A stretch of DNA of 64,000 bases from Eledone cirrhosa (Eukaryota): assembly GCA_964016885.1 (NCBI GenBank), contig OZ024745.1, positions 104,470,001 to 104,534,000 of the forward strand, read 5' to 3'. A program made the translations under genes and the position numbers. This document shows, piece by piece, positions 1,865-64,000 of the stretch. Below the pieces are notes generated by a model. The model saw nothing but the letters and a program-made list of their open reading frames with translations, was not told where the DNA came from and ran no database searches. How positions within the stretch are numbered: the first letter of the stretch is position 1; every line of letters starts with the position of its first letter.

Positions 1865-2197
1865 TTATCCATATAGCTTGAGGAAAGTTCCCGTCCTTAG
1901 GTGTCTGCAGGCACCGAATAAGTCGGCCCTTCTGTTTAATAGCTTGGTTCCGCCATGAAGAATCTCGAGTGTCTCACTAAGACAGAGGTTGCAAATACCA
2001 GTCTCGCCTCTGTCTGGGGGAACCTTTCTAACCACGGACCAGACCAGAGAGTGCGGGGTCTTTTCAAGTTTGAGCTTCCAGATCAATTCAGAAAGGGCCG
2101 TACATTTCCTCTTATCTATTCTGTTAAAGGAATGGCGATGGTTATACTACCGAGCTTTGAAGCTCGTCGCTGTGGATCCTATGTAGTGGTGCTCCGC
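1865..2197 (-). mobile_element. Penelope-like element GIY-YIG endonuclease remnant
   Basis: HYIGSTATSFKAR*YNHRHSF...TALSELIWKLK...WSVV...CNLCLSETLEIL...LLNRRADLFGACRH; one in-frame stop; flanked by TA-rich microsatellites. Confidence 0.85.
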
Positions 2198-2201
2198 GTC
2201 A

Positions 2202-8253: not shown

Positions 8254-8461
8254 CAAAAGTTCTATTTAAATTGTTGAGATACAACAAGTAAATATTTTTA
8301 TAACTGATATAAAGCACTCGACAAGTATTTGGAGTAGATATACGATATTAAATGCGACCGTTACTTTTGGAAGACATCAGGATATCCTGATGTCTTCCAA
8401 AAGTAACGGTCGCATTTTGAAAGAGTACGTCAATGTTTATTTATAAAACTGGTATATATTG

Positions 8462-8526
8462 TATTTTGTCTGATGAAGGCATACCATAATTTAACTTGGT
8501 ATCCTTGAAATATGTATAATGAAATA
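8462..8526 (+). ncRNA. Minimal type I hammerhead, same family as 60194
   Basis: TATTTTGT-CTGATGA-AGGCATACC...GGTATCCTT-GAAA-TATGTA-TA-ATGAAATA; downstream flank homologous to 60255-60295. Confidence 0.75.
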
Positions 8527-8565
8527 AATATGGTTTTATAAATATAGTTTCCATTTGTTAATATC

Positions 8566-8612
<47 letters not shown>

Positions 8613-8737
8613 AAATTTGTTTTATAAATAGTGACATACCCAGGAATCGGAACTTAACGGTTCACGTTCCGTAAGGATAGTGAGAGGAAAGAGGAAAAAT
8701 ATATTTGTTGAATTGCCAACAAATTAAATATCTCTTT

Positions 8738-8828
<91 letters not shown>

Positions 8829-9647: not shown

Positions 9648-9691
<44 letters not shown>

Positions 9692-9760
9692 AAAAAGAGA
9701 TGAAATCGAAAATGCAACTGGAGTCTTATTTTTTTTTTTAAATATATATATTTATTTGGT

Positions 9761-9800: not shown

Positions 9801-9965
9801 GAGTTGAGATGGGAAGGTCTGTGGTTTTTCTCACATCTGTGGTTTTTCTCACATTTAAAAAAAAAAATAAGACTCCAGTTGCATTTTCGATTTCATCTCT
9901 TTTTCTTTATACTTTCACTCGTGTAGGACACCTCGGTTATTTTTCAATTTGTAAAAAAAAAACCT

Positions 9966-10077
<112 letters not shown>

Positions 10078-10213
10078 GTAATTCCGTCGGAAAAAGTCCA
10101 TGAAAAAAGAGTGCTCTATGTAGGTAAGAGAGCTTAATAGTTATGTAATAAACAACATAATGCAATTATTCAATTTTTAAAAAATCCAAGTTCAATAAAC
10201 AGACCAGGATTTT

Positions 10214-10271
10214 TTCATTCTGAGGATTGAAAGCAAAATTTTTTGCTTTTAAGAAACCACTGGTAAATGGA
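10214..10271 (+). ncRNA. Type I hammerhead ribozyme, intact core
   Basis: Stem I TTCATT/AATGGA; CTGAGGA (10220-10226); stem II TTGAAAGCAAA/TTTGCTTTTAA; GAAA (10253-10256); stem III ACC-ACT-GGT; GUA site after 10265. Confidence 0.85.
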
Positions 10272-10301
10272 ATAATTGCATTATGTTGTTTATTACATAA
10301 C

Positions 10302-10416
<115 letters not shown>

Positions 10417-10747
10417 ATTAATTACTCTTTCCTCGAGTGCTTTGTGACAATCTTCGATGATTCGAGTGCTCATCTGCTACTTTCAGCTGTAACTTTGATT
10501 TTACTCATTAATATTATTATTTTTCTCATAGCCTTTATAATTAATTAATTAATTAATTAATTATTTAATTATTTGTTTGATAACCTAGTTGAGAGCTTAC
10601 CTTGGGACTGTGAATAAATCCTTTGTTCAGACTTTTGAATGTACCCGCCAAAGGTTGGTAAACTGATTTTCCTCTTTTTGAGAAATGCCACTTAACCTCA
10701 CTGACAAATTTACGACTACAGTCGAATGGCAGAGTTACCTCAGACCC

Positions 10748-15668: not shown

Positions 15669-15909
15669 ATGATACAGAAAAGCACAGTTCTTGGTATAGT
15701 GACTGTGTGACTCCTTCAATTCAATTAGCAGCTGGCAGTAAAACCCAAAGGTTTATTCAATGAAGATAATTTACTAATTACCAGGTATATCTGGTTTAAA
15801 ATAGGTACATCATATCTGTGTGTGATGTAAGAAGCTACTAAAAGGGTTAGTGTCAAGAAGGGTATGTGGCTCTAAAACATTGCCTCAAAAGGTCCTGTCC
15901 AACTCATGC
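15669..15909 (+). repeat. 241-bp near-identical duplicate of 13819-14059 at the LINE 5' junction
   Basis: Direct comparison: two mismatches seen, offset 1850 bp. Confidence 0.92.
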
Positions 15910-18900
15910 ACCACCATTATTACGTGGACCAATCATAAGTCAGAGACCCATACTATCGCTTAACTGGTTGCTTTTCGATATGATGGATGGACTACGGAAT
16001 TCTGGAGAGTTGAAGAGAGAAAAATGTGGACGCTCAGCGACAATGCCAAAGATAAAGCCAAATTCACCTCGTGGACGAGAATGCAAGCACTCCTCCTTGT
16101 TTCGGCCCAGGATGGCTAACATAACCCCCTCCCCCCCCGCGCCCCACCGCTCCCACCCTCCAAACGCAATCCAAAACTTCAGAGTTGGTACCATGAATGT
16201 AGGCACCTTAAAGGGTCGCTCTAACGAGGTTGTAGAAATGCTTGAACGTAAGGAGGTCGATGTTTGTTGTATTCAAGAGACCAGGTGGAGGGGAGGGTCG
16301 GCTAGATTCATCGTGGGTAAAGAACGATGCTATAAGCTTTTCTGGGTGGGAAATGACAATGGGTTGGGTGGGGTAGGAATCATGGTAGCAGAAAAGTGGG
16401 CAGATAAGATAATAGACGTAAATAGAGTGAACGACAGAATAATTAAAATAAGACTTGTCCTCAATAAAACTACGGTGACAGTAATATCTGCGTACGCACC
16501 CCAATCCGGACTGCCCGGCGCTATAAAAGACAGATTCTACGAGACACTGATGCTCGCTACCTCCCAAATAACCGACAGTGACTATATAGTTATTGCAGGC
16601 GACCTAAATGGTCACGTTGGACAACATTGTGACGGCTATGACGGAATCCATGGAGGCTATGGGTTCGGTACTAGAAATGAGGAAGGCTCCAGAATCCTGG
16701 AATTCTGCGACGCAAATAACTTAATTATCTGTAACACTAACTTCAAAAAAACGAGACAATCACTTGTCACGAGACAATCACCTATAGATCGGGGGAACAC
16801 ACAAGCCAGGTAGATTATATCCTTACCAGAAGACGTGACAGAGTGTCTGTTGTTAACACTAAATCCCACCCCCATGAAGAATTCACCTCCCAACATAGAC
16901 TGATAATTAGCGACCTCATAGTCAGGACGAGACGTACTAGACAGCGGAAGAGGACTATCCTCAGGAGAAAAATATGGAAGCTAAAGGACCCCATAGCCAG
17001 AAATAAATTTCAAAGCATATTACTTGACGCTTTCGACAGTAAGGAAGAGCAATTAGAGTCGTATAATATAGAGGAACAGTGGGAATTCCTGAGAGCAAAC
17101 CTGCTAACGGCGGCAGACGAAGTCTGTGGCTGGAGCAGGCCTGTAGGTAGGAGGAGAGTAACATGGTGGTGGAACAGTAAGGTGGAGGAGTCAATTAAGG
17201 CCAAAAAGCAGGCTTGGAAAGTATGGCGGGATGGGGGAAGTAGAGAAGACTATCAAGTGGCCAGGAGGGAAGCTAGGAGACAAGTGTACTTCGCAAGAAG
17301 GGAAGCAGAGGAAAGAAAGTTCAAGCATGTTCTACAACGTGAGGACCAAAAACGTGAGGTGTTCAGGATTGCCAGGCAATGTGTCAAGGAAAACCGTGAT
17401 ATTGTCGGGGAGAAGTGTGTACTTAACGATGATGGCATACTTGCCATCACCGACGCTGATAAGAAGGTAGCTTGGAAGTGTCACTACGAAAGGCTTCTAA
17501 ATGAGAAGAACAAATGGGAGAAAGACAGTCTCCCTCAGATCGATCCAATAGAGGGACCAGCAGTGTTAGTTGAAGGTAGTATAATAAGTAAGGCAATCAA
17601 AGATATGAAGACGGGTAAGGCGGCTGGGCCTTCGGAAATAGTTGCTGAGATGCTGAAGGCATCTGGTTTGGTGGGACACACCATGGTCACCCGGATAGTT
17701 AACCAAGTCGTACAGAATGGGGTTGTTCCGAAGGAATGGCGTAGCAGCATCATCGTTAACTGCTATAAGGGAAAAGGAGATGCCCTAGATAGGAGTAACT
17801 ATAGAGGCATTAAATTAATCGACCAGGTCATGAAGGTCACGGAAAAAGTAATAGCGCAACTAATCAGAGAGAGAATTGATCTAGATGAAATGCAGTTTGG
17901 GTTTGTGTCAGGCAAAAGTACCACAGACGCTCTTTTCATTGTACGACAACTACAGGAGAAGTACCTAGCTAAAAGTAAACCCCTATACTTAGCTTTCGTC
18001 GACTTGGAGAAAGCCTTCGACAGAGTCCCCCGTTCCATTATCTGGTGGTCTCTTAGAAAACTAGGTGTTGACGAATGGCTTGTGAGAGCTATACAAGCCA
18101 TGTATAAAGAAACAGTCAGTAAGGTTAGAATTAACAATGAATATAGTGAAGAGTTTAGCGTAAAAGTTGGTGTCCATCAGGGCTCTGTTCTTAGCCCCCT
18201 ACTATTTATTATTGCCCTTCAGGCTATAACAGAGGAGTTCAAGACCGGCTGCCCATGGGAACTCCTATACGCAGATGATCTAACGCTCATAGCTGAATCA
18301 GTGACCGAACTAGAGAAGAAATTCCAAACATGGAAGCACGGCCTAGAATCAAAAGGCCTTAAAATTAACCTGGCTAAGACTAAAGTTCTAGTTTGTAGGA
18401 AAGAAAATAAGGCGGCGGTCCCATCTGGGAAATGGCCATGCTCAGTGTGTAGGAAAGGCGTAGGTAGAAACTCCATTTTATGTCCCAAATGCAAAGTATG
18501 GGTGCATAAAAGATGTAGTGGGATCACAGGTAAGCTAACTAAGAACATAGATTTTACATGTGGCCGGTGCTCTGGTGCAATAAGTAGCAGCAAGTGCCCA
18601 CAAAATACTAGCTCCTTCAACTGCACAGAGGGTTCTATAGAAATAGTGGACAGCTTCCGTTATCTGGGTGACAAAATCAGCAGTGGGGGAGGGTGCTCTG
18701 AAAGTACAGTAGCTAGAGTCAGAACTGGATGGATAAAGTTCAGAGAGCTTATACCACTATTAGCCGCTAGAGGGTTCTCCCTAAAAATGAAAGGCAGGTT
18801 ATACGATGCCTGCATATGAACAGCAATGCTGCATGGCAGTGAGACCTGGGCATTGTGTGCAGAGGATATACACAGACTAGAGAGGAACGAAGCTTGCATG

Positions 18901-19731
18901 CTCCGCTGGATGTGCAATAGTAATATACGTGAACGGTAAAGCATAAACGAACTAAGGAAAAAATTAGAAATAAGAGGGATCAGATGTTGTTTACTCGAGA
19001 GAAGGCTACGTTGGTACGGTCACGTGATGCGCATGAAAGACGACAGCTGTATAACAAAGTGCAGGGCAATAAAGATAGACGGTAGCCACGGAGTAGGCAG
19101 ACCCAGAAAAACATGGGACGAGCTGATAAATTCCGACCTCACACGCTTACACCTCTCCAAGACAATGTCACTGGACCGAGACCTTTGGCGGTACTCAGTA
19201 ATAGAGAAGACCCGCCTTACCTAAATACAAAGTAAAAACCTACTACAGTCAGTAGGCATCTCTATCAAAACACACCCCCGTCCCACCACCTCCACCCCAC
19301 CCACACCGCCCCTTTCAATGTAAAGTTATGTTGGTCCCACAACATCCAGGCCGAAACAAATGAGATCGTGTAGGTGTCACGACAAAAAACACACAGTCCA
19401 CGCTGTAAATGTGGCCGTGTAGGCAACACGGTAAAAACCTCCCAGCCCCACACTGTAAATGTGGTTGGTGTTAGGAAGGGCATCCAGCTGTAGAAAACCC
19501 GCCAGACAGTCCACGCTGTAATGTGGCCGTGTAGGCAACACAGTAAAAACCTCCCAGCCCCACACTGTAAATGTGGTTGGTGTTAGGAAGGGCATCCAAC
19601 TGTAGAAAACCCGCCAGACAGTCCTATGCGAGCAAGACAACCACTCTTGCCTCAAGTGGGAAAACCCCCGTCCAAACCCATGCAAGCGTGGAACACGGAC
19701 GCTAAACCTGATGATGATGATGATGATGATG
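15910..19731 (+). mobile_element. RTE-clade LINE, near full length, disrupted (APE endonuclease + RT + 3'UTR + (GAT)n tail)
   Basis: APE motifs GTMNVGTL, CIQETRW, SAYAPQ, AGDLNGHVG. RT motifs NYRGIKL, QFGF, FVDLEKAFDRV, GVHQGSVLSP, YADD, FRYLG. Frameshift near 16745-16780, stops at 18817 and 18937, ORF end 19224, (GAT)n tail 19709-19731. Confidence 0.95.
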
Positions 19732-20167: not shown

Positions 20168-21400
20168 TTTCTATTTCTTTTTCTCTCAGTCACACACACA
20201 TGCATGCATATCTTTACACAAACACTCACAATATATATAATTAAATATATACATACACAGATCAGCACAGAAAATCTATTGGCATAATAAACATGCTTGC
20301 CAAATTTCTCATTAATGTTGGCATGGTTAAGTGACAAATCAAAGGTTGTGTATGTAAAATAACTTTAGGATTTTTTTAAAACTAACATAAGTCTTATGCA
20401 CATGAGTGCGTTTATGCTTACATATAGGTAATCCTCTACATGGTCACTTGACCTACTAGGAATAGCAACCAAACCCCACCTGAATTATACTCTAGTAAGC
20501 AGGGATAACAGTAAAATTACACTGTAGTGTAATCCTATATACTTTATGTCTGAATAAAACAAAAGAAGAATAAATTAAGGTGGTCATGATTGGAACACAT
20601 TTGATCATAGCCCCATTCAGTCATAACAAACAAACAAAAATGCTATACACTACAGGGGCAGTGGAAGCATTTCTGAATTGGGGTGCCAAATTTGGTCAAT
20701 TTAGTTGTAGTGATTAGTTTAGCTATTATAAAATGTCAGCCAATATATAAAAATCTTTGATATGCAACAAACATAACATGTACATAAATTGTAGCACATA
20801 TACAAATAGATGTGTGTTTTGGTAGTTTGGGGAGAAAATATGTACTATGTATTCACATGTATACAGCATAGTTTCAGAATAGATTGAAGTATGGCATATA
20901 TGAGCTAGTTATTTTTTTTCCTTTATGATGTGACCTCAAATAACACAGTGATGATGTTGATGTTGGTGTATGTTTGTGTGTGTATATATGGGAAAAGAGT
21001 CAGGACCCTGATGGCTGAGCTCCAGCTGTTTCGACAGCTAGACCTGAACAGTTCAGGTCTAGCTGTCGAAACGGCTGGAGCTCAACCGTTGGGGTCCTGA
21101 CTCTTTTCTTATTACCCACTCTACTACCTAAGTATCGAATACTCTGGTGCATTATGGTCCATCTGGTTCCTTACCACACTGCCTTTGTTATATATATATG
21201 TATAGGTGGTTCAGTGCATTACTGGTATTGGTACCAAAGCAAGCACTCTATGCACAGGCAGAGAGTATATAATAGAAAAAAAAAGAGCAAATTTTGTTTA
21301 CATATAAAAGATATTTATTGTGTATTGACTTGTTATGCACGTTTTACAGAGGATTGGCTCAAGATCACCCATAGGAGTTATGGACCCAACTTCACATCAC

Positions 21401-21488
21401 CAGTCTGAGGAGCAGATCAATAGTGGAGTCAGATCCATAACTGCTATGGTTACCTTGAGCCAATCCTCTGTGAAACACGCGTAACAAG
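21401..21488 (+). ncRNA. Hammerhead-like motif with long stem II, stem I decayed
   Basis: GT-CTGAGGA-GCAGA...TCTGT-GAAA-CACGCG-TA-AC; lies within inverted repeat 21266-21545. Confidence 0.6.
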
Positions 21489-24400
21489 TCACAATAAATA
21501 TCTTTTTTATGGAAACGAAACATTCTCGTTTTTTCCTATTATATATATATATGCACATATGCACTGCAAGATACATAGTCATACACACACACACTGACAC
21601 AAATATGCACTATGAGATAGTCATACGTATACACACACACGACTGATACATACTAATTGTGGTGCTTACACACACACATACTAACCTATATGAACAATGA
21701 CCAACACATACTGACACATACAAGCATATGCAATGAATCATAGACTGTGATACAAACTCATTGACAAATACTTACATATCAGCACACACATATACACACA
21801 GACTCATTCACTCACACTAACAACAGTCTCATGTATGCATAGACGTCCTAACCCTTAAAAGGGTTAGGACGTCTGTTGGAGTTTGAAACATTTGTCTTGA
21901 CAGTAGTGGTACGGATACCATTGGTGGTACTGTGTCAATCAGTCAGTGTTTTGTGGATAATAATGTGTAGCTCTACAAACAGTTCACTGACCACTGTCCA
22001 TAAGCATACACTGTTATCTCCCTTGATACATCTTCACTCATTGAAACCATGAACTGTTGTTACCACTTTCATTCCATTGATTCTACATACTACATGTGGT
22101 TGCTGTTACCTCTTGTTTACGTTAAATTTGATTCTTCCTAAGAAGTGTATCTTTATTACAGAGTTTCACTTTGCTTACACAATCCTCTGTCATACTTTTT
22201 TTTTCTCACACATACACATACATTATGCTTTACTCATGCTTACCACTTTCTAATATCTATATTAAGCATATTTACACACACTATCAGTACATACTTACAC
22301 ATTGAAATATACACTACAAACTTAAAAGGTGCATTTCAATCCACACATATGGATAAACAATGTACACATGAGTTACTATATCATTTTATATAATATGTAC
22401 ATACAAAAAACACAATTTTAATCGCGCACACACTTACATGTGCATACATACACTTTCATGAAATCACATACAAACCTACACTCACAGCTGCATCTCTTTA
22501 CAAACAACTTGCACTATATTACCGAACTGATAAAACATTTTTTAAGCAAATGTCAATGGGAGAAACACCTTCCTGGAAATTCCTTTTATATAGAATTCTT
22601 TTTGGTAATCATTTTGTTTTTGTCTAGCCCCAGATATATTCTAATTGAGCAAACTTATGATGAAAGGTGTTCTAACAGTAACCATCTCCTCTTTTTGAAT
22701 ATTGTCTATGTCATTTATTATTTAAGATGATTGAGAGTTGAGGAAGATTTGACTGCTGCTTCTAGAAGGTAAAGTGACCACATGGAGCCCCACTTATTGA
22801 CTTGTACATCATTTTGTAGATATTCATTTTTTTCATTCATTTCATTTTACGTCCGCTTTTTCCCTGCTTGCAAGGGTGGGACGGGATTGATTTCTACAGC
22901 TGGATGGCCTTCCTAACACCAACCTCATTTACAGAGAGTGCTGGGTGCTTTTTTGCCGTGGCACCTGCATGACCACTTTGCAGTGGAATGATATGGACCC
23001 CAGTCCCTATCATCTCATTTCTACAGCTGAGTAAACTGGAGCAATGTGAAATAAAGTGTCTTGGAAACAACCATGTGAAATAAAGTGTCTAGGAAACAAC
23101 ACATCACCCGGTCTGAGAATTGAACTCACAACCTTTCGATTGCAAGGCCAATGCTCTAACCACTAAGCCATGTGCCTCCATATAATCAGTATAATGGAAA
23201 ATATTCTTGAAACTGAAATTCTAAACAATATTGGCAGTTTTCAACTTGCATTGATAACTTTTCAAATACTTTTCGAAGTTGGAACTCTCATACGTTTTAC
23301 TGCATGGCTCATTTTGTTTTCTATCATATCCTCAAAGACTTGTAAGCAAAGTTTTGTAGATGGAAACTGTGTTGAAGAGTTTGTTCCTGTTCTTGGGCAG
23401 TAAACTTAAATTTGTTTCCCAGTTTAACATCACCACCTGGTTTTGGGGGTGCCTTTAGCAGAGTTCACTTTCTTAAATGTATTTGGGTCAGCTTTCTTAT
23501 TTGAGGAGAGTAATTTCTTCCGTTCTACCTATTAGTCCCAGAGGTCTTGAAAACTGTCATGGGCATTGGCTTTTTCTTCTCTGACCAGACCATTAAATAA
23601 AAACAAACAAACAAAAAAGTAATCCTTAATTTAATATAAATAATATATTACGCCAAGTTTTAAGAAAAATTGTCAAAGCAGTATTTTGCTTATTTATTTA
23701 TTTTTTTTAGTAAACAAAGAGAACATTTAAATTTGTGTAAACAAAAAATAATTACATTTTGGACACAATTGAAATTTTTTTAATTTGAAAAGTAATATTC
23801 TTTGGAATTGCTTTCCTTTTTCTTTTCTCTTGTTATATTCGTGATTTTAGAGGGAAAAAAATATTTTAAGAGACAGGAGAAGAGAGAAATGTTTTAATGA
23901 AGACAGTTTTTGATATTTTCAGTATAGAAGCACATTGTAAGTGGTCAGTAACCCACAGGATGAGAACATGTATAAGGGAAGAGTAGGATGAAAACAACAG
24001 GCAGAATAGTTACTAGTCAAATATAGAATAGAAATGATGGGAAATAATGGTAAATAGAAGTAGATTAGACTAAGTTGGAGATAAGCCAAGGAGAAAAGGA
24101 ATGAAGAAGAAAGAAATAATCCAGAATATTGAAAGAAGGAATGTAGGAAAGAGATGAAAGATAGATGGGAAGACAGGAAAATAAGAGTGAAAGGAAAAAT
24201 ACATTTTTTTTATTTTATTAATTTCAGAAACATGTTTAGTAAAATATGTGGATTTAACAAACAAATACTGTTCTATTATCATTTGGCATGGGATGGGATA
24301 GGGAGGTCAAAGGTTAGATAAAATATATTTACAAAAATAGAAAAGATTTTAGTTCTTGCATCAGAGTAACACATGACAGACACAAGGTATTTTTTCTACT

Positions 24401-27048: not shown

Positions 27049-27140
27049 CAGATAGACATATAACATTGTTGGCAGAAAACACAGATTTCTGACATTTGTG
27101 ATCCCTAATTCTTGTTTTATTTTTAATTGATCCATGAATT

Positions 27141-28235
27141 AGTGGGATCACAGGTAAGCTAACTAAGAATATAGATTTTATATGTGGCCGGTGCTCTGGT
27201 GCAATAAGTAGCAGCAAGTGCCCATAGAATACTAGCTCATTCCATTGCACAGATGGTACTATAGAAATAGTGGACACCTTCCGTTACCTGGGTGACAAAA
27301 TCAGCAGTGGGGGAGGGTGTTCTGAAAGTACAGTAGCTAGAGTCAGAACGGGATGGAAAAAGTTCAGAGAGCTTATACCACTATTGGCCGCTAAAGGGTT
27401 CTCTCTAAATATGAAAGGCAGGCTGTATGATGCCTGCATACGAACAGCGATGTTACATGGCAGTGAGACCTGGGCATTGTGTGCAGAGGATATACGCAGA
27501 CTGGAGAGAAACGAAGCTTGCATGCTCCGCTGGATGTGTAATAGTAATATACGTGAACGGCAAAGCATAAACGAACTAAGGGAGAAATTAGGAATAAGAG
27601 GGATCAGATGTTGTTTACTCGAGAGAAGACTACGTTGGTATGGTTACGTGATGCGCATGAAAGACGACAGCTGTATAAAAAAGTGCAGGGCGATAAAAAT
27701 AGACGGTAGCCACGGAGTAGGCAGAGCCAGAAAAACCTGGGATGACTTGATAAATTCCGACCTCACACACTTACACCTCTCCAAGACAATGTCACTGGAC
27801 CAAGATCTTTGGCGCTACAGTCATACAGAAGACACGCCTTGCCTAAGTACAAAGCGAAACCTAGTCAGTAGGCACCTCTAACAAAATACACCCTCCCCAT
27901 CCCACTACTCCCACCCCATCCACACCACCCCCTTAAATGTGAAGTTATGTTGGTACCACAACATCCAGTTCGAAACAAATGAGGTCGTGTAGGTGTCACG
28001 ACAAAAAAACACACAGTCCACGCTGTAATGTGGCCGTGTAGGTAACACGGTAAAAACCTCCCAGTCCACACTGTAAACGTGGTTGGTGTTAGGAAGGGCA
28101 TCCAGCCGTAGAAAACCCGCCAGACAGTCCTATACGAGCAGGACAACAAATCTTGCCTCAAGTGGGAAAACTCCCGTCCAAACCCATGCAAGCGTGGAAG
28201 ATGGACGTTAAACGATGATGATGATGATGATGATG
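27141..28235 (+). mobile_element. 5'-truncated copy of the same RTE family in the last MBOAT7 intron (antisense to gene)
   Basis: Closely matches 18517-19731. (GAT)n tail. Candidate TSD ATGAATT at 27134-27140 and 28233-28239. Confidence 0.93.
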
Positions 28236-56600: not shown

Positions 56601-56864
56601 TAAGTAACTAAAAAAGTTGGTGTTAGGCAGGGTGTCCAGCTGTAAAATGTCTCAAAAAGTCCTGTCCAACCCATGCCAGCATGGAGATGTGGTTACACAA
56701 ACTATGATTATAATGATAAACACATTAAAACAAACAATTTTATATCATAAAATTAGAATTGGTTACAGGCAGATTGGTATCATAAAGTTAAAATAACAAT
56801 ATTTTAGTAAATAAACCCGAAATAGGGAATTATAAAGAACTTCATAGGATTAATAATAACTTAC

Positions 56865-56991
56865 TCGCAATGTTAAAAACAGTTGAACTGCATTAGCAAA
56901 AGCAGGTGGTGCTGGGAAACCAAACCAAGATGCTGTACGGAAGAAGGCCAAGTAAGTAAAGCACCAGAATAAACTAACAATGTGGCAGTAT
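56865..56991 (-). CDS. MBOAT7: MBOAT7/LPIAT1-like acyltransferase, most 5' coding exon seen (127 nt)
   Basis: ttccccAG|A TAC TGC...TTG CGA|GTaagt; translates (R)YCHIVSLFWCFTYLAFFRTASWFGFPAPPAFANAVQLFLTLR, matching the recalled MBOAT7 segment SCHALALAWTFSYLLFFR...FTNAVQLLLTLK. Confidence 0.92.
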
Positions 56992-59900
56992 CTGGGGAAA
57001 AAAAAAGGAAAAGAAAAAACAATTGAAAAAAGAGCATATAATAAAAAAATTACAGAGCATATTTATGTATATGTGTGTAATAAAATTCTGTTTTTCATAT
57101 ACAGACACTGCTATGAGAAGGAAGGAATATGTAATATTCTAAATATGACAAGCTACCTGTTATTTTCAGGCCAGATGTTGCATGGGGAGTGGGGTGGACT
57201 TTGTTTCAATTATCTTTATGCAGTTTTTGCTCACTGTCTCTCAGATGTGAAGTAAATGGTGAAGAACTGTATGATTCAATTTGCATTAAAATAAAAGAAA
57301 TTATATAATCGAGAACATGTCATAAGTATTGCACTACTGTATGACAATGATAATTGAATAATGAAAGGAGAGCAGATGCAGTAATAATATTCACATAGCT
57401 ATTAAACCTGTATCAATTTGTCAAAATGTGTACTGTAACTAAAAGAAAGGTTAATTTAGAAAAGATGGAAAGATAGAAATGTAATGCCTGACACAGAATT
57501 GCTAATGAGTATTTTGAAATCTCCCAAACAATTCTAACTACATTAAAACAAATTCTTTATTTTAAGTAACATGGAGGTTAGTTAGAGTAGGGTAGATTTG
57601 TTATGAGCTTGAAGAGATATGTCTGCTTTTTCATGCAAGCATGGATTGGGTAGGATGTTATAGACGAAATTAGTACTTAATTGGAGCTGCCCTCTTTGAC
57701 AGGTCAAGGGACAGAGTCTTATTCAGATACATTCTATTTTAACATGGTTTCTACAACTGGATGCTCTTCTTAATGCCAACCATTATACAGAATGTACTGG
57801 ATGCATTTTATCATAGCACTAAGACTCAAAAGACTGTTGTGTCTTTGCTTTGATGAAACTGATGAGTCCTCTCTACTCTTTTGGCATGATTTCTATGTCA
57901 ATCATTTTGCAGAGTGTACTGGGAGCATTCTAACATGTCACCAGCACTAGAAAGGTCATCATGCTTTTAATATGATTGTAAAGTTCTCTCTACCTTATGT
58001 TATTGCTATTGGAATAAGTTTAGAAAAGAAAAACCAACTATTAACTTTTAAAATATAACTTATAAACATGGAATTTTTTTATCTCTATTAGTCAACACCT
58101 CTTTAAGTTGTCTTATCATCCATATCCTTTCTATGTCTCAGTCATCTAGGATATTACAATACTAGGCTTTGATGAGGAGGTATAATAATGTCTAGAGTTG
58201 CCACTGAACTTGCCTAAGATCTGACTCACCCCTCACTGTTTTTCCCCCATTTTTAATTAAATTGGATTTCAGAGCCATATCCCTTGCTTTTCTTGACAAG
58301 AATTAACCACTAGAGCTAACGTATCTTGTTCACTTCACTGAGGTTGTAATCTTAATTGATTATGCATGTTTTTGGCTCCCTACATTATGTTATCCCTCAC
58401 ACACTTAACATTAGACAACTAGAGAACGTCTACATGGTAGCCAAACTTGTTGGAAATAGCTGCTATATCTCTTTCAACCATCTTTAAAAAAAAGGACACA
58501 TTGGTCAATGTAATCTTAAATAGCTTAAGTCTGAACAAAAAGCCAAAATATAAAAAAATGAAAGCCCCCAAACCTCTGCAAAACTAGAATACCTTTGATC
58601 ACAAGTCAACAATAATACTTCTACATGAATGAGCCAAAGAAAGATCATCTATGTGAGTATTGGACCTGCTAGAAATAACAACTAAATCACCCTCAAATCA
58701 CACAGTATTGTCTAAAAAAAAAAAAAAGGAAGATATAGCATAGTTGTAGATTGACAATGTCTGAAAAATAAAATTTGGAATGATCATCATAGCTTTCATT
58801 ATAGCTCAACTTGACCAGGGCTAATTTAATGCTAAAGAAAAAACAAAAAAAAGCAATGCCATTTATTTGAAAAGACCTGCTAATTCATGAGTTTGTTCCA
58901 TCATTTTGGTTGATAGTGAAGAAAATTGCTGTCGAAAAGATAATCAACCATTTCAAGTTCAGATTTGATAAATATTCAGACAACATTAACACCAAAACAA
59001 TTTTCTTACAAGCAGCTGAAAGATATTTTCTCTCTCTCTCAAATGCACACATGCACACCCACACCACACCAAACCACACACAAAAACAAACAAACAAAGG
59101 CACCATTTAAAGTTTCAATTTAAAAATAGAAATAGCTTTCACCATATTTTTGACTAAAGAAATTTTAGCCTGATAGTGGGGTTTAGAACCCTCTAAGAAA
59201 TGGAAAAAGATAAGTATTGTAATTTTTTTTTTTTTTTTTGCTTATAAAGTCTGTCCTATAATTCATTACTTAGTCATTCTAACCACATGTCTGTAGTACT
59301 GAAGTAGCAGCAGCCCTACTTGGAGCAACTCTCTGATCTCATAGTTAAGCAACATATTGAATAATATTACTCCAAAGACCCCTGGTTATTTGAAATGCAG
59401 TAATAAATGGGTTAATGCTAAGCTAGCTCAATATTATCATATATCCAACATGAACAATGATAGAAAACATTAATAATTCTCCCAGCTAGACAAACATTGG
59501 TATATGTCAGCAGATCAATTCACAAAAAAAGAAGTTTGAATATATTATAATTTCTATGGATAAAATTCATCATCATTGAAGTGACATGAACATAAAAAAG
59601 ACACATGCTTGCACAAGCACACACAAATGTATATATGTGTGTGTGTATGTATGTGTGTATATATACACACACACATATATATACAATGTAGATATCGATA
59701 TATAATATTGACTTGTTGACCAATAACCCCTTGATGCAAATTTGGTACTAAAATACTAAAAGCAGAGGGAACTCACATAAATATTGTTATAGACACAATT
59801 TGAATATCTTGCATAAAAAACATAATCAATTAGAACAATGAAATATTACCTATATTATATTAGCAATATATAGTTCTAATAAATGTTCATACAACATTGT

Positions 59901-60002
59901 TTCTGGTTCTAAAGAAACACAATGTTTATATATATACATATATATATATATATATTTTCAATGATATTAAATAAATGGAAACTATATTTATAAAACCATA
60001 TT

Positions 60003-60063
60003 TATTCTATTATATATATTTCAAGGGTTCCAAAACTTTGGTACGCTCTCATCAGATAAAATA
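60003..60063 (-). ncRNA. Minimal type I hammerhead, inverted twin of 60194-60254
   Basis: Reverse strand TATTTTAT-CTGATGA-GAGCGTACC...GGAACCCTT-GAAA-TATATA-TA-ATAGAATA. Confidence 0.75.
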
Positions 60064-60193
60064 CAAAGTTTGTTTTATAAATATTGACATATCCAGGAAG
60101 CAGATCTTAATGGTCCAAGTTTTTGATTATCCAGGAAAAACTTGAACCGTTAAGATCTTCCTGGATATGTCAATATTTATAAAACAAACTTTG

Positions 60194-60254
60194 TATTTTA
60201 TCTGATGAGAGTGTACCAAAGTTTTGGTACCCTTGAAATATATATAATAGAATA
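60194..60254 (+). ncRNA. Minimal type I hammerhead (palindromic stem III)
   Basis: TATTTTAT-CTGATGA-GAGTGTACCAAA/TTTGGTACCCTT-GAAA-TATATA-TA-ATAGAATA. Confidence 0.8.
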
Positions 60255-60390
60255 AATATTGTTTTATAAATATAGTTTCCATTTATTTAATATCATTGAA
60301 TATTATACTCCAGAAAACCTGTCAAGTGCTTTGAATCAGTTATAAACATATATATTTTTTGAATTACCAACAAATTAAATATCCCCTTTG

Positions 60391-60457
<67 letters not shown>

Positions 60458-63460: not shown

Positions 63461-64000
63461 ATATATATACATGCACACACATACATATATATACACACAC
63501 ACACATATATATATGTATAAAATAAATGGATCTCCATTTGCTTCTAAGACAAGTATTCACTTATTCAATCAACCAAGCTGCCTGCTAATTGAATTAGCAT
63601 GTAAGTGGACAAGTATTCCTTAGACACAAATACCCTTAATGTAATCTTTAGGCAGAACTAGCAAATCAGAAAGACACACTGTGATAAGGCTGGCACTTTG
63701 AATTACAGGTTTAGTACGCCTAACAGACTTCCACACATTTTCAATCAATCTAATTTAACACACAAGGTTATGGTAAAAGACACTTGTGGAAGATGTCTCA
63801 CCATGCAGTAGGATGGAACCCAGAGGCTTGTGATTGCGAAGGGAACTTATCAATCACTCAGCCATGTCTGTGTCTGTGTCTGTATATATATAATTGGTGT
63901 TGGATGCTTAAAGCGTCCGTATGAGGTAGGCCGTATGAGCACTCGATATTTTCATAGAGCAGAGTATGATATCACAGAAAAAAAAAGAATCAGCGTTGCG

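Follow-up and report, generated by a model that had tools for sequence, protein, structure and literature searches.

A fold-back insertion with two opposed hammerhead motifs, likely from a Penelope-like element, in a likely MBOAT7 intron

The unit at 59957-60392 very probably consists of two 5′-truncated 3′ ends of a high-copy hammerhead repeat, joined 5′-to-5′. This repeat is likely a dead Penelope-like element (PLE), probably of the Hydra type, and its host site is likely an intron of MBOAT7. All positions refer to the window, which is the whole 64-kb stretch of DNA that was analysed. At 436 bp, the full unit is larger than the 344-bp fold-back first reported. The embedding in (TA)n that had been described for the fold-back holds for the full unit and not for the fold-back itself, since a 92-nt tail intervenes on the right. 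The parts of the unit and the microsatellites around it are as follows.

59927..59955, no strand assigned: left (TA)n target microsatellite (TRF period 2, 14.5 copies)
59957..60124, minus strand: left arm, an inverted 5′-truncated copy of the element 3′ end, which ends at the proximal terminus without a tail and is sense in the MBOAT7 pre-mRNA
60003..60063, minus strand: minimal type I hammerhead motif from the descriptor scan, with a predicted cut after 60011 and a private A-A mismatch in helix II (60029)
60125..60135, plus strand: spacer of 11 nt at the meeting point of the two 5′-truncated ends
60136..60300, plus strand: right arm, a forward 5′-truncated copy of the element 3′ end
60173..60273, plus strand: outer AU-rich helix, which lengthens helix I around the ribozyme inside one arm (z -3.5 for 60166-60282)
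60194..60254, plus strand: minimal type I hammerhead motif from the descriptor scan, with a predicted cut after 60246
60301..60392, plus strand: one-sided tail of 92 nt that runs to the distal terminus (depth 1.4-2.3e5 in sequencing run X1) and is common to 8254-8353 (minus strand) and 8699-8745 (plus strand)
60393..60457, no strand assigned: right (TA)n(TG)n target microsatellite, directly 3′ of the tail

The fold-back is present in the sequence. Alignment of the left arm (168 nt) with the reverse complement of the right arm (165 nt) gives 165 columns with five mismatches (59997/60260, 60029/60228, 60045/60212, 60111/60149 and 60115/60145) and one 3-nt indel, which agrees with the original prediction of two arms of ~165 bp with few mismatches. 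The 11-nt spacer between the arms is probably in part extra 5′ sequence of the right arm. As RNA, the hairpin has a minimum free energy of -232.7 kcal/mol on the plus strand and -228.3 kcal/mol on the minus strand, and none of 100 shuffled sequences folds equally well on either strand.

The descriptor scan recovers precisely the two hammerheads that had been proposed, 60194-60254 on the plus strand and 60063-60003 on the minus strand. A stricter descriptor gives four hits in the window (the 60-kb pair, 8470 and 10220) compared to none in 200 Markov-1 resamples of the window. Both 60-kb motifs have the core CUGANGA and GAAA, the pair A15.1-U16.1, H17 and helices I to III that identify a type I hammerhead. 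In the plus-strand copy, helix I has 8 bp, helix II has 3+7 bp and helix III has 2 bp within an 8-nt AU palindrome. The earlier description of both motifs as complete is correct for the core nucleotides, which are all there, and overstated for the helices. Helix III consists of two A-U pairs with a predicted pair probability of 0.0005-0.0009, which does not indicate a stable monomer. The pair 10.1-11.1 is G-U in both 60-kb arms and A-U in the 8.4-kb copy, instead of G10.1-C11.1. Moreover, the minus-strand copy has the A-A mismatch in helix II, at a position (60029) where the family letter is A in 50725 of 52489 units of depth in run X1. Intermolecular pairing through the 8-nt palindrome of helix III is predicted at -3.2 kcal/mol. 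There are no two hammerheads on the same strand at 60 kb, and with one sense motif per strand there is therefore no dimer partner in cis.

The sequence of helix II varies between the 60-kb and 8.4-kb copies, with pairing retained. At 60022-60027, loose ends in runs X1 and X11 reveal subfamilies that have a wholly different helix II on the same core flanks, and such replacement is the pattern expected of a selectively maintained structure. In the search against Rfam, no hammerhead family matches at the gathering threshold or appears among the 24 matches at E<=10. The sole strong matches were to generic miRNA-hairpin models, and these were rejected with scores far under gathering.

Abundance of the repeat was compared at 80% likeness in 4 of 13 sequencing runs (X1, X4, X7 and X11). 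In X1, summed contig depth is 1.4e5-2.3e6 across most of 59972-60379, compared to 5.8 in the unique right flank, as measured on a contig identical to it, and in X11, 28,306 of 12.5 million RAD reads match the element; summed depth in these two runs is not copy number, and we infer only roughly that the family has on the order of 10^4 copies. Runs X4 and X7 yield just 7 and 1 matching records. Depth in X1 declines towards the centre of the unit, from 1e5-1e6 in the arms to 7.6e3 at 60108-60141 and ~550 at 60127, and the drop to 7.6e3 is what one expects if dispersed copies are often truncated at the 5′ end. The A>G and T>C counts of X1 were also considered as a sign of RNA editing, which was rejected because they resemble those of the DNA run X11 and thus point to family divergence.

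The family has two termini. In the sequencing runs, 33 contigs of other copies enter (TA)n at 60303, the proximal terminus, and the distal terminus lies at ~60392, with other copies continuing to 60392-60395. In the element sense given by the truncation gradient, the predicted cut site precedes the proximal terminus by 54 nt and the distal one by 146 nt. Frames 5′ of the ribozyme have open stretches of <30 codons. The tail contains a short bulged hairpin motif at 60307-60327, which is unstable alone (z +0.6 at 60307-60327, with further z values of -0.3 and -0.1). This tail motif is counted 4 times compared to 0.07 expected, a count that is inflated because the pattern was built from three of the four hits. 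An isolated tail-hairpin motif is also seen at 63938-63965 (minus strand), ~70 nt before a TA run and inside the same putative MBOAT7 intron.

Joints between parts of the unit are also seen in other contigs. Among the 15 listed of 42 joints, 14 lead forward out of the left arm, either to the right arm itself or in its direction, which suggests inverted joins at other loci, and the internal inverted repeat of the element can mimic some of these. Four listed joints from other contigs fall at 60121-60128. These joints, and the depth that persists at 60127, mean that the centre junction may have been inherited by a palindromic subfamily and not formed at the 60-kb site.

Family copies within the window were found by nhmmer and pairwise alignment. 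They comprise the 60-kb unit and two further insertions.

8254..8567, no strand assigned: second family insertion in mirror layout, with a tailed minus arm from which the ribozyme is deleted and a plus arm with a hammerhead at 8462-8526 that ends in (TA)n
8604..8745, no strand assigned: third family insertion, an inverted upstream piece plus the last ~45 nt of the tail, which is a non-overlapping inversion in (TA)n

At the centre of 8254-8567 is a 33-nt perfect inverted repeat, and the plus arm stops at the equivalent of the proximal terminus. All three insertions of the family identified in the window show inversion, and two of them pair a tailed with an untailed arm. Upstream of 60166, the 8.4-kb and 60-kb copies have different sequences. 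No direct tandem copy of the family was found within the window with TRF or with nhmmer and pairwise alignment.

A second hammerhead family is seen at 10110-10445. Its motif at 10213-10272 (plus strand) has a 4+1+4 helix III like that of the Hydra table, and the hammerhead arm ends in (TA)n ~38 nt past the cut site. An inverted copy of 40 nt at 10137-10176, with 39 of the 40 nt matching, enters a tail motif at 10133-10110 (minus strand), with the fold-back at 10137-10304, and a tail-like motif at 10424-10442 (plus strand) lies beyond microsatellites. Another fold-back, 21241-21545 (arms 21266-21545, 75% identity), has one arm that ends in (TA)n and one that enters the same tail motif. It is older, lies ~4.6 kb past the MBOAT7 stop codon, and no intact hammerhead core was seen in it. 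At least four fold-backs in the window have the tailed and untailed layout (59957-60392, 8254-8567, ~10110-10304 and ~21241-21545), and they apparently represent three families.

Further repeats occur in the window. A GC-richer palindrome of 117 nt (20992-21108, 91%) adjoins a short TA run. A perfect 59-nt inverted repeat (9685-9743 and 9853-9911, 109 nt apart) lies right after (TA)n, and near it there is a relaxed hammerhead-like match at 9640-9567 (minus strand). At 15851-19224 (plus strand) there is a frameshifted LINE with AP-endonuclease, RT and a PHD-like finger (Pfam), and a 1-kb LINE 3′ fragment in the last MBOAT7 intron (27140-28130, plus strand) is 91% identical to it. We take both to be RTE-like. 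A 48-nt repeat is presumably octopod SINE-like.

The geometry of the 60-kb unit points to how it may have formed. The 3′ ends of the two arms point outward and abut (TA)n, with each of the two family termini represented once, which is the expected product of two primed, early-terminated and joined cDNAs. In such a process, the RT/GIY-YIG protein of a PLE, supplied in trans, would cut both strands in (TA)n. Each target 3′-OH would then prime reverse transcription, one from the proximal and one from the distal initiation site. Both cDNAs would terminate early and be joined in the middle, and the fold-back would thus be a by-product of integration. A snap-back copy of a single cDNA is less likely, as it would not have to stop exactly at the proximal terminus. 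The arms have diverged by ~1.5% each, which suggests an insertion age of a few million years if there has been no conversion (a distance of 0.09 corresponds to 25 Myr in the calibration of PMC13282606).

Family abundance, the inverted copies in the window and published PLE layouts all support the original prediction of a Penelope-like insertion with an inverted partial copy. Membership among the PLEs is likely by analogy of architecture, namely the 3′-end hammerhead, the adjacent inverted 5′-truncated copy, the one-sided tail, the 5′ truncation of copies and the (TA)n target. The direct partial tandem of PLEs (pLTR-ORF-pLTR) is absent from the 60-kb locus, as expected of a truncated copy. Insertion into (TA)n is a trait of the Hydra clade, and it is also found in Naiads and others, so it is non-diagnostic by itself. 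The clade is otherwise recognised by its RT/EN motifs (DKT, RWK and CxCX5C, with no CCHH) and by phylogeny. Among PLEs, the Hydra clade is probably the best fit for the 60-kb element, which is known from its non-coding 3′ end alone. Pattern scans for the family in metagenome and viral contigs gave no matches, and they linked no RT/endonuclease ORF to it.

A Hydra-like GIY-YIG remnant is seen elsewhere in the window, at 1865-2146 within 1865-2200 (minus strand). It is 5′-truncated, has an in-frame stop and adjoins (TA)n, and the region 1865-2200 shows 43% identity to two proteins with Hydra-clade-like motifs. The remnant at 1865-2146 has no match in Pfam and no nucleotide match to the 60-kb family by nhmmer. 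For the Hydra-like protein P0031, there was 1 pattern match in viral contigs and 28 in genome contigs, and no relative was confirmed among them.

Other origins of the palindrome have to be weighed against two PLE ends. It could be an assembly or read fold-back artefact of one arm; palindromic structures are known to trouble assemblies (PMC8557442), and among the contigs listed from four sequencing runs none spans the hairpin centre or the entire stretch. However, each arm differs from the family majority at places of its own (60029, 60111 and 60115 in the left arm; 60212, 60260 and the 3-nt gap in the right arm), two of which are C-to-T at CpG. In addition, the left arm stops at a true terminus of the family and other loci show the same layout, so an artefact is extremely improbable. 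Both arms also share non-majority letters at 60007-8 and 60249-50, which means that they come from one source or were homogenised later. A near-perfect long inverted repeat in a TA context, with several contigs that have a common junction near 60128, would also suit a non-autonomous MITE-like DNA transposon that inserted at TA and whose long terminal inverted repeats fortuitously contain hammerheads. Such an origin is very unlikely, because the ends are not symmetrical (the tail is one-sided only) and the centre is not fixed. Depth at the centre is 20-300 times below that of the arms, the centre of the 8.3-kb copy (8.38 kb) is different and its layout is the mirror image, and at 8.6 kb the inversion is of the non-overlapping kind.

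The repeat could also descend from a non-LTR retrozyme (hammerhead repeats of 200-400 nt in tandem, with a circular RNA intermediate) and have been dispersed through reverse transcription by a PLE enzyme, with no coding parent of its own. The size of ~265 nt, the low GC content and the type I hammerhead with palindromic helix III would be in keeping with this, as would the failure of the pattern scans of metagenome and viral contigs to lead to a parent ORF, and an origin from PLE pLTRs has been proposed for retrozymes (bioRxiv 10.64898/2026.07.22.740005). Direct tandem copies, however, are absent from the window, helix II is of the long PLE type, the pair of termini and the tail motif look like those of PLE 3′ ends, and the 8.4-kb and 60-kb copies diverge upstream of 60166, all of which make a retrozyme derivative unlikely. 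The joining of two truncated PLE 3′ ends is the preferred reading.

The unit lies near coding sequence of MBOAT7, which has six coding exons on the minus strand of the window, from 56993-56862 (aa 73-116) to 26501-26160. The last coding exon has 95% identity to an Argonauta protein, which points to an octopod host.

56862..56993, minus strand: exon for aa 73-116, the furthest upstream of the MBOAT7 coding exons in the window, with a pyrimidine tract and an AG acceptor before it

The element sits 2,964 nt upstream of this exon. MBOAT7 aa 1-72 are absent from the window, where the best six-frame score is <=46 compared to 101-158 for control exons, which in a collinear assembly places the first exons past 64000. 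This supports the earlier placement of the unit in an intron, with the upstream exon beyond 60.3 kb. Judging from the sequence, the element likely lies in an MBOAT7 intron >7 kb long; other MBOAT7 introns in the window reach ~11.7 kb. Because MBOAT7 is on the minus strand, its pre-mRNA would carry the left-arm ribozyme in sense.

It had been proposed that the antisense arm is made first and sequesters the ribozyme, and the folding model shows this to be physically right. The active fold carries a predicted penalty of 85-87 kcal/mol in the full hairpin, compared to 6.3-6.4 kcal/mol (a fold probability of ~3e-5) in the single arm, and 12 of 12 nascent minus-strand prefixes from 60096 to 59986 are predicted to be paired at the 3′ end; nearest-neighbour energies ignore tertiary contacts and proteins. 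In the MBOAT7 pre-mRNA, the emerging sense ribozyme would zip into the ~165-bp duplex and no cleavage would follow. The ribozyme would be poor as a monomer anyway, so that the insertion would probably be near-neutral. The duplex would likely be edited by ADAR and discarded with the intron. Action of ADAR or Dicer on the hairpin is plausible by analogy. A single arm need not be inert, since an axolotl monomer with a 2-bp helix III cleaves and the PAc hammerhead is protein-assisted.

It had also been proposed that masking explains tolerance, and in its strongest form this would mean that the insertion persists because the antisense arm masks a harmful active ribozyme, with selection in favour of intronic fold-back copies. 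The ~85 kcal/mol by which the full hairpin disfavours the active fold and the 3′ pairing of all 12 minus-strand prefixes are consistent with this. It would also agree with the depletion of retrozymes from Xenopus introns (bioRxiv 10.64898/2026.07.22.740005), with the measurable cleavage of some monomers with a 2-bp helix III (PMC7229834) and with reports that fast ribozymes can abort splicing (as cited in PMC2995048). However, the predicted active fold of the single arm is already rare at ~3e-5, the MBOAT7-sense copy has the broken helix II pair (60029), and no further sense copy is available in cis to form the dimer. Moreover, introns cleaved by hammerheads are spliced normally (as cited in PMC2995048), and fold-backs of the same layout recur beyond the coding span of MBOAT7, at 8.3, 10.2 and 21.4 kb, sites that may themselves be transcribed. 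Masking is therefore an improbable reason for the persistence of the insertion, and in the folding model it is probably needless for tolerating it.

In the openly accessible literature, no prior description of the family, of the masking idea or of the tail motif was found. The kind of arrangement is already in print, as inverted Penelope copies, as opposite-strand hammerhead pairs and as siRNA from Penelope inverted repeats, and the 60-kb unit is most likely an ordinary PLE fold-back insertion. The single locus carries little weight, since most likely it is just the end of a dead retrotransposon within an intron. It illustrates PLE integration geometry neatly, with two termini and two outward 3′ ends, and it fits the priming on both strands seen in vitro. 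Should the layout prove as common across the genome as in the window, PLE fold-backs could be a sizeable substrate for ADAR and Dicer in octopus introns, and the common tail hairpin would be a candidate recognition signal for the RT of Hydra-type elements. A broader and speculative proposal is that octopod Hydra-type PLEs routinely prime at two sites marked by a conserved bulged tail hairpin, at both ends, and that many thousands of ribozyme-silencing fold-backs are a main, hitherto unassigned octopus source of long dsRNA and intronic hyper-editing; we regard this as rather unlikely. In PMC5625713, the frog signal is explained by a palindromic repeat and octopus is omitted from the repeat annotation. 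Self-complementary (TA)n microsatellites could alternatively explain much of the octopus dsRNA signal.

Craig et al. 2021 (PMC8557442) describe PLEs with an adjacent inverted 5′-truncated copy and a tail of 30-40 nt at one end, and a Hydra clade that targets (TA)n, carries hammerheads and includes an octopus Hydra family. The Hydra-clade PLEs Penelope-13_HM, Hydra-1_Obim, Hydra-2_Ajap and Hydra-1_Crog resemble the 60-kb element in the (TA)n target, in the U before GAAA and in a sense hammerhead that lies within ~100-200 nt of the 3′ end. In Penelope-13_HM, an inverted 5′-truncated copy places a hammerhead on each strand, as it does in the 60-kb fold-back. By eye, the proximal end is rich in TA in three of six Hydra consensi (File S7), and a short bulged-hairpin motif comparable to that of the 60-kb tail comes after it. 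The 60-kb element differs in the helix III segment, which is an 8-nt AU palindrome compared to mostly 9 nt in the Hydra clade, and in the tail, which has 92 nt compared to 30-40 nt. By eye, the hammerhead table of PMC8557442 has no matching row, Hydra-1_oBim included, with the U before GAAA common to both, and a short-motif search of the supplement consensi found none of the family motifs. An 11-nt word 5′ of the ribozyme (60142-60152) recurs, by eye, in the 3′ UTR of Hydra-1_Amil, which may be chance.

Minimal metazoan PLE hammerheads are described by Cervera and de la Pena 2014 (PMC4209133), including dual motifs that lie on opposite strands at a distance of 100-700 bp; one minimal PLE motif by itself gave no detectable cleavage in vitro. 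These hammerheads share with the 60-kb pair a long helix II, a short palindromic helix III and massive dispersal as truncated copies. Helix I has 8 bp and an outer helix at 60 kb compared to 4-5 bp in these hammerheads, and the pair 10.1-11.1 is G-U or A-U in the 60-kb family compared to a conserved G-C. In the present parse, the 60-kb hammerhead also lacks the bulged base between 9 and 10.1 that they have. Non-LTR retrozymes (PMC7229834) are likewise short non-coding repeats with a type I hammerhead suited to dimer folding, and in monomer form an axolotl hammerhead with a 2-bp helix III reached 22% cleavage in 1 h. Retrozymes are arranged as direct tandem repeats, whereas the 60-kb unit pairs two inverted copies and has a single sense ribozyme on each strand. 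In human cells, hammerhead cleavage within an intron is compatible with splicing (PMC2995048, citing others).

Self-complementary insertions that form long dsRNA without a distant partner are also known. These include Penelope inverted repeats, which are matched by siRNAs (PMC3681739), and a palindromic frog Harbinger repeat, which is heavily edited by ADAR, as is lizard Penelope (PMC5625713); the 60-kb hairpin resembles both kinds of repeat. The dsRNA potential of octopus is exceptionally high in PMC5625713. The ubiquitous editing of cephalopods is located in introns, 3′ UTRs and repeats (PMC9068888), and 31 recently active Penelope-like families are reported from O. vulgaris (PMC13282606), in the available part of which ribozymes are unmentioned.

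The closest parallel for the proposed integration is PAc (Anolis Poseidon), whose PLE protein cuts and extends both strands, with two RT start sites that bracket the tail, and whose hammerhead is protein-assisted and dispensable for insertion (Frangieh et al. 2024, PMC11167929). The ORF of PAc begins at the hammerhead and its tail has 30-40 nt, whereas the 60-kb element has no ORF after the ribozyme and a tail of 92 nt. Both have two 3′ termini around the tail and an AT-rich target, and cutting and extension of both strands, as in PAc, would give the outward 3′ ends seen at 60 kb.
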